Shown here piece by piece: positions 21,601 through 24,600 of a DNA stretch of 42,776 nt. Made by a program: the position numbers. Numbering within the stretch: position 1 is the stretch's first letter; the number at the start of each line of letters is the position of its first letter. This stretch comes from a virus (lineage: Duplodnaviria; Heunggongvirae; Uroviricota; Caudoviricetes). Location: the IMG/VR virus record IMGVR_UViG_2874945390_000010, positions 1 to 42,776 of that record. One strand, given 5' to 3'.

Positions 21601-24600
21601 CGCTGCCATCGCTGCGCATGACAACTTCCCCGGTCTATTCATTCACCAGCGGAATGACAAAACCAAAAATATTAATAAGGATAAATACATGCCAGTCCAT
21701 CAACTCAATGGGCTGGCCTGCCAGCGCCCCTTTCACATGGGGCACAAATTTGTAGAAATTCAGGATGTGCTGCGCACGGGGTTCACTGAAATAAATCCCC
21801 CGCTCTTCGCCGTACTTCAGATCATCAAGAAAACGCTGGCAGGCCAGACGGACAAATTCGCCAGCGACAATTTCTCCTGCAACAACACGTTCGGCGTAGC
21901 GGATCCCGTCAGCCACTTTTGCCATCAGTCTCTCGCTTTTAAAAGCTCTGCCAGCGGATCAACATCATCCGGTCCGGCGGTATTTACTTTCGCCCGGCTT
22001 GCCGGTGACATACCAAACTCTGCAAGCATCGCCCGGATCCGCTTCCAGGCATCAGCCTTCATCGCAGCAGCCGGGTGTGCCTTGATCAGCACATCGCCAT
22101 TCTGCGTTTCCGTGCGGTAGGTATAACCCTCAACATCGAGTATTTCGCAGTGATGCCGGTATTCGGTGTAGGCTTCCACCAGTAACTCGAGCGCACGTGC
22201 ATCGAGCTGAGAAATGATCCCTTCCGCATTCAACTCTTCCGCCATTCGCCTGAACCAGTACTTCCCCTGTGCCCCTAAATGTTGCGGAATTTTAGGGAGA
22301 CCTTTTTCATCCTTTTTAGCGGTTTTTTTGAGGTCTTTAACGGGGCGCTTTGAGGGGTTGCCTCGTATCAAATGCAGGCGTGGCGGGGTTTTCGGGGGTC
22401 CAGACATAATCGATTTTACCTATCAATCATTAAATCACATTCCAAAAAAAAGTTTTCGAACCTGCGGCGATGCGAGGAAAGGTCAGGCGGCGGTACTGAG
22501 CAGCCAGGGTTGCAGAGATTTGACCCGCCCCTCCCCTACAGATGGGAACTGTTATCAATTGATGCGTTCGCGCGCTGTTTTTGCTTTATGACAGGGCCAG
22601 CACAGACTCTGCAGGTTACTGTCTGCATCCGTGCCACCATGAGCTTTCGGAATGATGTGGTCCACAGTTCTGGCTTCAACGGCTCTCCCATTGCGCAGGC
22701 AGTTCTGACACAGATGATTATCACGCTTCAGTATGCGCGCACGTATGGCATCCCATTTCGAGCCATAGCCACGCTGGTGGCGGCTCAGTCCGCGTTGATG
22801 CTGTACCCATCCTTCGCCACGATGTTTATCGCAGTAACCAGAACTGTCTGTGGTTGTACCTGCACATCCACGCTTACGGCAGGCGCGTGGGATTCGTGAT
22901 GGCATAAATACCTCATACCCTGCGAAATGTTTACCACGATAAAAAGGCTACTTAATGCACTGAGTGCGGATATACTCCTGTGCCCCTTCCAGTTGCATCT
23001 GCATCGTCATCAGCCGCTCTCTGAGGGTGAAATAATCCCGTTCAGCGGTGTCTGCCAGTCGGGGGCTGGTTGCATTATCCACGCCGGAGGCGGTGGTGGC
23101 TTCACGCACTGACTGACAGACTGCTTTGATGTGCAACCGACGACGACCAGCGGCAACATCAGCGCGCAGAGTTTCATTTTCAGCTTTCGCATTGGCTAAT
23201 TCTCTCGAGTACTTTGCATCGAGCGCAGCAACATCACGCTGACGCTGCTGCATGTCAGCGATGGTGGCGATCGCCTGCTTCAGCTCACTGACTTTTTTAT
23301 CACGCTGTTCTTTGTAGGCGATGGCGTTATCACGGTAATGATTGACCGCCCACGACAGGCAGACGATGATGCAAATAACCAGAGCATAAATAATCGCGGC
23401 GACTCTGCTCACTGATCTATCCCCCAACAGGCTAATGCGCTTTCCTGGTCACGACGAATAACCTGTCCATAGCAGTTATTTGAACGTATGCGGCAATCGC
23501 GCCCACCATCTTTTATCCACCAGCGAATCGCCTCGCATGCGCCCTTACGATCACCGGCATTCAGCCGCTTATAAAACGTCGACGGGAAACACTTACCGGG
23601 GCCAATGTTATAGGGACAGAATGATGCGATACCGGCTTTCTGTGGCTCGGTCAGTGGAACTTTTATATTGCGCTCCACCCATGCCAGCGCCTTATCACGC
23701 TCAATGGCATTAACCTGAGCGCATTTTTCCTTCGACAGTTTCATTCCTGGTACGACTGGCTTACCGTCCACCATCGTTGCACCGCGGCAGATGGTCCATA
23801 TGCCGGAACCATCGCGGTATGCCGTAGTGTGGTTACCCTCTTTTTCATCCAGAAACTGGTCAAGTATTTGAGGAGCAGACGCGCCTGCAGCAATCAGCGC
23901 CAGAACAGCAGCTGACAGGCCGTATTTGATTTTTGCGCTCATGGATATTTATCAGGATGCTACCAATGAAAGATACTGGAAAGCCAACTGCAAAAAGCTA
24001 ACAACCCGTAATCGAGTTATCAGAACTGTTAATTTTTATGGTATACCGCGCCTCTGAACAGGGGCGCGTTTGTGGCAACAGCTCGTCCCCTTCACATAAC
24101 CCGGCAGCAACATCCAGGAAGACCTGTCTGATGCTCCTTCTGGCTGCTGCCTCATAAAACTCCAGCGCGGCACCTTCAACACGGTCCAGCGAGATGTCCA
24201 GGCCAAAAATTTCACCGTCAAAGCGTTTTTTGTCCCGTAACGCTAAAGTTACCGTAACTTTATTCTCAAAATTGCGGATCCCTTTCACAATCAGTTCATA
24301 TTTTTGAGTCATTGAATTACTCTCCCCGTGCAGCCTTACGCTTGTCTTCTTTAATCTTGAAATAAAGGTTTGTCAGGTACGTCAGCAGGCCAAATACCAG
24401 GCTACCCAGCACACCTATTGCTGCCCACTGTGAGGGCGTGACTTTATCGAGCAGCTGTAAAAACCAGTAGCCAGCACTGCCTGCGGAGGTGCCGTAGGCA
24501 ATGCCTGTTGAAATTTTGTCCATGGATTTCATAGCCTCACCTCCGCACGGAACGGATGGCATAGTTATTATGTGTAGGCTTTCAGACACATCAATCAGAG

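Follow-up and report, generated by a model that had tools for sequence, protein, structure and literature searches.

A YdfR-family (DUF1327) gene between the pinholin and SAR endolysin genes of a lysis cassette, with a tentative link to RNase E and RNA

The 104-codon open reading frame (ORF) separating the holin and endolysin genes of the window (the whole 42,776-nucleotide stretch of virus DNA analysed here, IMG/VR record IMGVR_UViG_2874945390_000010) belongs, judged from its sequence, to the named E. coli prophage family YdfR/DUF1327. Our preferred reading, put forward tentatively, is that its product is optional and binds RNA or RNase E in the late phase, as opposed to forming part of the lysis machinery. 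The gene is located at 23998-24312 on the minus strand (104 aa plus stop, from the ORF list and sequence). The encoded protein matches Pfam DUF1327 (PF07041) with 128.7 bits (E 9.7e-38, profile positions 1-90 of 93), the curated cut-off being 25 bits, and PHROG 2735 (E 1.6e-54), which is annotated as function unknown. DNA that is 99% identical carries the RefSeq label 'YdfR family protein'. The preliminary description was therefore mistaken in calling the gene unassigned. It was right that the ORF is well initiated: it has an ATG start and a strong Shine-Dalgarno (SD) sequence, GGGGAGAG. As it stands, ydfR is an already catalogued, routine prophage gene, and no new element is present. The residues that are invariant or nearly so in 23-25 family members, down to 31% identity, are all found in the window protein, namely the N-terminal YEL and, at the start of the helix, G47, L50, E51, Y53, E54 and A57. 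The dN/dS of this core is approximately 0.25-0.3 at deeper divergence. Family conservation and dN/dS together demonstrate that this is a real gene, and rule out both a chance ORF and a wrong start call.

The proposed link to RNase E derives from E. coli K-12 YdfR (b1555, Qin prophage), a protein of the same DUF1327 family that is 66% identical overall to the window protein, with 58 of 72 positions (81%) identical across K-12 residues 1-72. A literature search on the family turned up only one functional study and a screen supplement. A two-hybrid screen picked up K-12 YdfR residues 1-72, the full-length protein interacted with Rne1-597, and Rne1-598 co-eluted with Strep-YdfR (PMC13232886, 2026). 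According to this one study, which used over-produced protein, K-12 YdfR binds the catalytic half of RNase E, and DNase-resistant nucleic acid (RNA) co-purified with it (PMC13232886). As the co-purification was done without nuclease treatment, RNA might bridge YdfR and RNase E. Over-expression of K-12 YdfR changed few transcripts and left growth unaffected, and the K-12 copy is silent in standard growth (PMC13232886).

By analogy with its K-12 orthologue, window YdfR would use its conserved core to bind RNA, the N-terminal catalytic half of RNase E, or both, and late in infection this binding may modulate how RNA decays or is processed. Such an action would resemble, in principle, that of other phage RNase E-binding proteins. 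One of them, T4 Srd, stimulates decay and belongs, like RapZ, to the binders of the N-terminal half; another, phiKZ Dip, acts on the degradosome by blocking its RNA-binding sites. If the lead is correct, YdfR would be to temperate phages what the known RNase E modulators are to lytic ones. About four in five complete E. coli genomes carry YdfR-family DNA, and the role of the family is so far only a candidate one (RNase E/RNA).

Window YdfR is an acidic protein of 11.7 kDa (pI 5.5). Family alignments and the AlphaFold2 core model (pLDDT 85.2) define a conserved core domain of residues 1-75 (24088-24312, minus strand), with a three-stranded sheet (strands 5-14, 18-27 and 34-43) followed by one long helix (50-74). 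The remainder, residues 76-104 plus stop (23998-24087, minus strand), is a variable C-terminal tail with pLDDT below 50. Its sequence differs among the 103/104-, 114/116-, 161-, 176- and 268-aa variants while the core is kept; the window protein ends in …CEGDELLPQTRPCSEARYTIKINSSDNSITGC and Qin YdfR in …SEKVESYLQHQYSFKIENPANKHERPHHKYL, and in P0151 and P0166 the same tail is attached to other N-terminal modules. No transmembrane or hydrophobic segment was detected, the highest 19-residue Kyte-Doolittle mean being 0.75. On this model, window YdfR is a small soluble α/β protein with a predicted disordered tail.

A homology and structure search, as had been proposed earlier, yielded the DUF1327 family match and stopped short of a relative of known function: none was significant in a profile search of PDB sequences or among NCBIfam families, and Foldseek returned no match at E ≤0.001 against viral models. 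On this count, structure lends the RNase E/RNA reading no support. An Rfam scan of the whole window gave nothing in the ydfR region. In the 161- to 287-aa variants, the additional C-terminal portions contain no Pfam domain, and hence offer no clue from a fusion partner. A double-stranded RNA-binding domain (dsRBD, PF00035) was considered and rejected: the fold score is weak and there is no Pfam match. The dsRBD has an α-β-β-β-α fold in which helix 2 opens with a conserved basic motif, whereas the basic helix positions of YdfR that recall this motif are not kept in distant members. The invariant residues of YdfR are instead acidic or aromatic (Y5, E6, E51, Y53 and E54), and at the level of sequence these features argue against direct nucleic-acid binding.

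ydfR is embedded in a lysis cassette read from the minus strand, in an operon that sets the time of cell lysis and, for Stx phages, of toxin release. The gene lies on the late-gene strand, with a Q antiterminator gene upstream. It was correctly placed by the preliminary description between a pinholin and a SAR endolysin. The S21-family pinholin (71 aa, 24317-24532, minus strand; PF04971, E 1.8e-35) has a dual start at Met1/Met4 (MKSMDK…), with the second ATG at 24523, and ends in …ARGE. A 90-aa GTG-initiated version of the same ORF is a mechanical ORF call only. The endolysin (177 aa, 23409-23942, minus strand; PF00959, T4-lysozyme family) is of the RrrQ/933W type, with 93% identity to Qin RrrQ and only approximately 34% to the R21/RrrD type; 933W R is visibly similar to it over the full length. 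Its N-terminal segment, YGLSAAVLALIAAGASAP, is Ala/Gly-rich and weakly hydrophobic as in the SAR type, and the triad E35-X8-D44-X5-T50 can be read from the translation. Both neighbours thus have the sequence features of an S21 pinholin and a SAR endolysin, and membrane release is predicted. Downstream are the Rz spanin (22948-23427, minus strand; PF03245) and, embedded in it, Rz1 (23010-23192; PF06085).

The ydfR SD GGGGAGAG (24320-24327, minus strand) lies within the last pinholin codons, and is followed by the pinholin stop TAA, a 4-nt spacer (TTCA) and the ydfR ATG; its predicted anti-SD pairing energy is -8.5 kcal/mol. Since the ydfR start is coupled to the pinholin end, YdfR should be made alongside the lysis proteins. 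The endolysin start is preceded by a 55-nt spacer (23943-23997, minus strand), an AU-rich leader that lacks an SD, contains AUAAAUAUC and runs …AUCCUGAUAAAUAUCC AUG, with an anti-SD pairing energy of -2.8 kcal/mol. An 11-bp hairpin spans the ydfR stop codon and is followed by CUUUUUG, a terminator-like arrangement (23998-24023, minus strand; fold z = -2.15), and terminator-like sites showed no excess over shuffled sequence in a pattern scan. The gene order of the window recurs in phage mEp460 (S-ydfR-R) and in Qin (essQ-ydfR-rrrQ); in Qin, too, 4 nt separate the stop codon of the S21-type holin from the ydfR ATG. The stop codon of Qin ydfR, however, overlaps the start of rrrQ (ATGA), where the window has the SD-less spacer and hairpin.

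A comparison with phage 933W, in which S is directly followed by R, reveals what the presence of ydfR means for the endolysin start. In 933W, R is driven by the same element, GGGGAGAG embedded in S with a 4-nt spacer; ydfR takes this strong coupled ribosome site, and the endolysin is consequently left with an SD-less start. Indeed, the endolysin start lacks an SD in all 103 ydfR-bearing loci examined, which share the same type of SD-less leader. This would probably lead to lower or altered translation of the endolysin relative to the holin. If ydfR does tune endolysin expression, this would explain the difference between Stx1a/Stx2c-type and 933W-type lysis cassettes. It could accordingly be proposed that ydfR is mainly a cis-acting translational spacer, uncoupling the endolysin from the strong ribosome site of the holin and setting the holin:endolysin ratio, with the protein being secondary. 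The shared SD and spacer, the uniformly SD-less endolysin starts and the Qin stop-start overlap all fit this proposal. However, we consider it very unlikely, given the purifying selection on the protein (dN/dS approximately 0.3), the confident fold, the retention of the core while tails are swapped, and the occurrence of family members away from any endolysin. The same leader could also be a target of the protein itself. YdfR might act as a post-transcriptional regulator of its own lysis cassette: bound to RNA and to RNase E in its catalytic half, it would affect cleavage or translation at the AU-rich, SD-less endolysin leader and thereby the holin:endolysin ratio and lysis timing. This version, too, strikes us as improbable to a high degree; if true, it would represent lysis control of a kind undescribed for pinholin/SAR-endolysin systems.

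Of 5426 complete E. coli genomes, 4247 contain related DNA, YdfR-family DNA often being present in several copies, and the family is present in many Shiga-toxin phages. A one-genome-per-species scan recovered the family only in Escherichia records and two metagenome bins. The preliminary description had held that holin and endolysin are usually adjacent, which applies to phage 21-type cassettes and 933W; for E. coli prophages generally it does not, as a holin-to-ydfR junction like that of the window was found in 2259 of the 5426 genomes and the direct 933W-type holin-to-endolysin junction in 645 (junctions counted when the match spans at least 80% of the query). The spacing is also highly regular: of 90 related loci, 88 have the ydfR ATG 4 nt past an S21-type holin stop, and the other two correspond to an IS-disrupted holin and a contig end. 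Among phage records, 101 have the YdfR core and 438 the holin family, such that ydfR is missing from approximately three in four of the holin-bearing records. The two types of Stx phage differ: the core is present in 41 records of Stx1a phages, compared with 47 for the holin, and in only 2 records of Stx2a phages, compared with 124. Absence from close relatives, which the preliminary description had set out as a check together with identical lysis timing, is borne out by 933W, by phage 21-type cassettes and by the majority of holin-family records. ydfR is optional cargo of lambdoid Escherichia phages.

The placement of the gene had led to the suggestion of an antiholin-like regulator. Antiholins (the S21-71 and lambda S107 isoforms; T4 RI and RIII) are likewise encoded within or beside lysis genes. 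Those that are holin isoforms or of the RI type are membrane-embedded or anchored holin inhibitors, whereas window YdfR lacks a membrane segment (peak hydropathy 0.75, pI 5.5, soluble model), is dissimilar in sequence, and is both optional and not restricted to holin neighbourhoods. In phage 21 the antiholin is supplied by the S21 dual-start motif, and the window holin has its own dual start. YdfR proteins at 96-97% identity adjoin holins at 77-100% identity, showing no co-variation between the two, and divergent members are located outside the slot. The antiholin suggestion is not upheld by these data.

T4 RIII nevertheless sets a precedent for a soluble cytoplasmic helper. By analogy with a cytoplasmic antiholin cofactor, YdfR could bind the pinholin at its cytoplasmic tail, or else the SAR endolysin prior to export, and so delay or sharpen lysis. 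In favour of such a timing factor are the position directly after the holin and ahead of the endolysin in the same 88 of 90 loci, the translational coupling to the holin, which implies co-production, and the occurrence of distant members between an unrelated HP1-type holin (PF16080) and endolysin. The near-constant slot between holin and endolysin, with two unrelated holin families, argues for a lysis-related role, which is a point against the RNase E/RNA reading. In addition, the Keio ydfR mutant is among the hits of an envelope-leakiness (CPRG) screen, although this might reflect expression of the SAR endolysin gene rrrQ further downstream, driven from the resistance cassette. The soluble nature of YdfR, the dual-start motif already in the holin, the absence of ydfR from 933W, phage 21-type cassettes and most Stx2a phages, and the independent variation of YdfR and holin all speak against a timing factor, as do further distant members that lie after Rz or within tail operons (in the gaps separating M from L and I from J). 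On balance, a timing factor appears unlikely, and RNA or RNase E binding continues to be our preferred reading.

A moron was the other suggestion made for this gene, and it stands in part. In Hendrix's sense, a moron is an added gene that brings a promoter and a terminator along and is expressed from the prophage. Presence or absence among otherwise similar phages (933W with S and R directly joined; 101 core-bearing versus 438 holin-bearing records), and the distant members in tail-operon insertion slots, are as might be expected of optional cargo. The gene has no promoter of its own, is co-oriented with the late operon and coupled to the holin, and the K-12 copy is silent, which do not agree with a moron. 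The ATG is only 4 nt after the holin stop, with no promoter-like site ahead of it, and the promoter scan gave 8 sites versus 7.9 expected from shuffled sequence. In a broader version, YdfR would be moron-type cargo with no connection to lysis or RNA decay, carried in a permissive late-operon slot; it might, for instance, benefit the host, act in exclusion or counter a defence system. This is supported by the mosaic tails as well as by the distribution and the tail-gene M/L and I/J slots, and is opposed by the missing promoter, by the orientation and by the lack of a match to known defence families (neither the 104-aa nor the 268-aa variant matched a PADLOC profile at E ≤0.01). We regard it as doubtful, in the same measure as a timing factor.

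The holin-endolysin interval elsewhere also gathers unrelated reverse-strand small ORFs and IS elements, an accumulation in keeping with a permissive slot. A two-gene module of DUF1327 plus a convergent small ORF was considered and dismissed, the recurring reverse-strand ORFs not being detectably related (best pairwise E 0.006). Long DUF1327 proteins are encoded by Stx1a/Stx2c phages, H-19B, BP-4795 and Stx2-converting phage 86 (gp05, 268 aa). Their core is 56% identical to that of the window protein, and they occupy the same slot directly after S; unlike the window protein, they have 100-190 additional C-terminal residues, for which there is no Pfam match. The corresponding cassettes contain an inserted reverse-strand ORF and, in some cases, ant as well.

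The minus-strand ORF of 104 codons (ATG at 24312, stop at 23998, in agreement between the ORF list and the sequence) was considered unassigned in the preliminary description. However, the first 96 residues of its product match the Pfam family DUF1327 with an E-value of 9.7e-38 and 128.7 bits (the Pfam cut-off is 25 bits), and RefSeq labels the gene on 99%-identical DNA as 'YdfR family protein' or 'DUF1327 domain-containing protein'. The family's founding member, ydfR of the E. coli K-12 prophage Qin, lies in the gene order essQ (holin)-ydfR-rrrQ (endolysin)-rzpQ, which the window shares; the K-12 and window proteins are 66% identical overall and 81% (58/72) across residues 1-72. 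The database matches, the Qin gene order and the identity to K-12 YdfR therefore place the ORF in a named family. The protein also matches PHROG 2735, labelled 'unknown function'. Neither ydfR nor its family is new, and both are annotated as a matter of routine: 4247 of 5426 complete E. coli genomes contain related DNA, in as many as 8 places each, and the public viral contigs L011 and L012 encode a protein identical to that of the window. The family is small and narrow. Among 1.84 billion representatives it forms only 59 clusters at 50% identity. A one-genome-per-species scan placed it in Escherichia records and two metagenome bins only, and among 50,697 phage records it is confined to Escherichia phages.

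The neighbourhood is as originally proposed, with the ORF and its Shine-Dalgarno sequence lying between a pinholin and a SAR endolysin. The gene 5' of ydfR encodes an S21-family holin (PF04971, E 1.8e-35) whose N-terminus, MKSM, is a dual-start motif. Directly 3' lies a 177-aa lysozyme (23409-23942; PF00959) with an N-terminal segment rich in Ala, Gly and Ser and an E35-X8-D44-X5-T50 triad, followed by Rz and Rz1 and then an HNH gene. Only 4 nt separate the holin stop from the ydfR ATG. Because …GCA CGG GGA GAG precedes TAA TTCA ATG on the minus strand, the Shine-Dalgarno GGGGAGAG (24320-24327, minus strand) is built from the final holin codons (…ARGE). The 16S anti-SD is predicted to pair with it at -8.5 kcal/mol, close to the -10.8 kcal/mol of the holin's own start.

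This coupling to the holin is near constant, with 88 of the 90 loci retrieved through the YdfR protein placing the ATG 4 nt past the stop of an S21-type holin; in one of the other two an IS has destroyed the holin, and the other falls at a contig end. Across these loci the holin is 77-100% identical to that of the window while YdfR is 94-100% identical, which indicates that the two genes recombine independently. The gene 3' of ydfR is nearly always an RrrQ/933W-type endolysin, starting 58 nt beyond the last ydfR codon or past an inserted reverse-strand small ORF, or disrupted by an IS. Two relatives are degraded: in L011 (2225-2999) an IS has deleted the holin except for its final ~15 nt, beside a ydfR that is still 100% identical, and in L033 (3749-4905) an IS3-type element replaces the endolysin start.

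When approached from the holin side, ydfR proves common but dispensable. Among 80 IMG/VR loci with a holin at least 94% identical to that of the window, 17 carry ydfR, whereas 54 proceed without it straight to an R21/RrrD-type endolysin (the type seen in Ayreon, for example) only ~34% identical to the window endolysin; for the other 9 the sequence is too short or gives no information. In phage 933W, S is followed by the same GGGGAGAG-TAA-4 nt junction and then directly by the RrrQ-type endolysin. The holin family occurs in 438 phage records and the DUF1327 core (residues 1 to ~75) in 101. Among Shiga-toxin phages the gene tracks toxin type: most Stx1a (41 records with the core, 47 with the holin) and Stx2c phages (15 and 17) have it, and Stx2a phages almost never do (2 and 124). 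Counting junctions with at least 80% of the query spanned, complete E. coli genomes with the holin-ydfR junction number 2259, against 645 with the direct 933W-type junction. The expectation that holin and endolysin usually lie side by side is thus untrue for this pair in E. coli prophages.

In alignments the core is conserved and the tails are interchangeable. Proteins of the family measure 103/104, 114/116, 161, 176 or 268-287 aa, all with the core, and the extra C-terminal parts of the longer ones contain no recognisable domain. The tail of the window protein is also attached to unrelated N-terminal modules in two other proteins (P0151 and P0166), which points to mosaic recombination. While the full-length model is mediocre (pLDDT 65, tail <50), a more diverse alignment gave a confident core model (pLDDT 85.2), in which a single long helix (50-74) packs on three antiparallel strands (5-14, 18-27, 34-43). 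The folded core is soluble; the window protein (pI 5.5) has no hydrophobic segment, the highest 19-residue hydropathy being 0.75. Residues Y5, E6 and L7, together with L50, E51, Y53, E54 and A57 at the helix start, are fixed down to 31% identity. The core is under purifying, though not strong, selection, since dN/dS is ~0.25-0.3 in the more divergent comparisons. A dsRBD identity was considered and rejected, as the first helix is absent, Pfam dsrm gives no match and the basic helix positions are not conserved.

Distant family members reveal that DUF1327 genes always lie in late operons, for the most part in the lysis cassette but not in every case. The most divergent two (39% and 31% identical), both above the Pfam threshold, occupy lambda-like tail operons, one in a gpI-like/gpJ gap (L173 4001-4285) and the other in a gpM/gpL gap (L174 449-667). 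A 48%-identical member lies immediately 3' of Rz (L175 503-718), and a frameshifted 59%-identical copy (L177 4001-4517) is flanked by an HP1-type holin (PF16080), which is unrelated to S21, and an endolysin of the type found in the window. The constant position of ydfR might suggest a cytoplasmic lysis-timing factor, but this is unlikely for a dispensable protein that has no membrane segment, does not co-vary with the holin and has relatives outside the cassette; the same points argue against the antiholin-like regulator first envisaged. The moron proposed as its alternative is half right: as optional, mosaic cargo ydfR fits the term, but it lacks its own promoter and is integrated into the late operon. 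That it is moron-type cargo unrelated to lysis or RNA decay is likewise unlikely.

A small convergent ORF of 74-104 aa on the opposite strand was repeatedly found 3' of DUF1327 genes, in lysis cassettes and tail operons alike (L046 3312-3551, L091 3031-3303, L003 5109-5423, L177 4465-4725, L173 4282-4506, L174 696-1001). These ORFs have no detectable homology to one another, and none accompanies the window copy.

Where present, ydfR takes over the strong holin-embedded ribosome site. In 933W, R, an endolysin of the same type, is served by the strong SD inside the holin 3' end, with pairing of -8.5 kcal/mol, the value of most ydfR starts. In contrast, no endolysin Shine-Dalgarno was found within 22 nt upstream in 103 of 103 ydfR-bearing loci (window leader 23943-23997); the leader is conserved as …AUAAAUAUCC AUG and close variants, with anti-SD pairing of only -2.8 to +1.6 kcal/mol. 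The arrangement may thereby lower or change endolysin translation relative to the holin. It is improbable that ydfR acts mainly in cis as a translational spacer. The stop codon of Qin ydfR overlaps the ATG of the endolysin (ATGA), whereas the window has a 55-nt spacer. A hairpin (23998-24023, minus strand; 11 bp with several G-U pairs) followed by CUUUUUG lies exactly on the ydfR stop codon and looks terminator-like, but its significance is doubtful, with z only -2.15 and a scan finding as many such sites in shuffled sequence.

The only experimental lead on function comes from K-12 YdfR (PMC13232886, RNA Biol 2026). RNase G served as bait in the two-hybrid screen that yielded residues 1-72, with which RNase E constructs gave stronger signals; Rne1-597 interacted with full-length YdfR, and Strep-YdfR co-eluted FLAG-tagged Rne1-598. 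The eluate contained abundant DNase-resistant nucleic acid, from which the authors suggest that YdfR is an RNA-binding protein, with the caveats that it was over-produced and that co-elution was performed without nuclease treatment. The authors also caution that over-expression changed the transcriptome little and growth not at all, and that ydfR is silent in standard conditions (PMC13232886). Tentatively, the most likely reading, family identity included, is that YdfR would be an accessory late protein working via RNA, the catalytic half of RNase E, or both. The narrower proposal that it acts through RNase E to control how the mRNA of its own lysis cassette is processed or translated is a long shot. 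An envelope screen cited by the same authors lists a ydfR mutant in its supplement (PMC3879167); read-through from a resistance cassette into rrrQ, the SAR endolysin gene, could account for this listing. What is added here, namely the alternative S-R and S-ydfR-R architectures (the latter with an SD-less R), the Stx1a/Stx2c versus Stx2a split and the tail-operon relatives, is unsurprising in itself and makes it easier to test what this very common E. coli prophage gene does.

In its other genes the window is consistent with a Qin/Rac-like lambdoid prophage, given its Q antiterminator, RusA, DUF968/YdfU-family gene, DicF, hok/sok, RecE-like exonuclease and integrase beside tRNA-Ser. The integrase (40718-41743, plus strand) and adjoining tRNA-Ser(cga) (41796-41885, minus strand) mark one prophage end. 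Rfam matches above the gathering score are DicF antisense RNA (36521-36572, plus strand) and, on the minus strand, the sok antitoxin RNA of hok/sok (29585-29755), IS009 (2631-2829) and the sRNA STnc100 (25869-26059), the last between the Q gene and two tandem minus-strand ORFs with TolA C-terminal domains (24784-25179 and 25330-25758; PF06519, E 1e-14 and 2e-23). These ORFs share 28% identity, begin with lipoprotein-like N-termini (…VAGC and …IIGC) and are located between the holin and the Q/tRNA region; a terminator-like hairpin (24658-24641) comes next. They accompany a 100%-identical holin in several IMG/VR loci, have no match in PADLOC, and are candidate TolA-mimic exclusion morons. A DDE_3 transposase with HTH domains (30383-31414, plus strand), on the opposite strand within the prophage early region, suggests an IS insertion, and a phage-borne tRNA-Met(cat) (26220-26295, minus strand) lies downstream of the Q gene.
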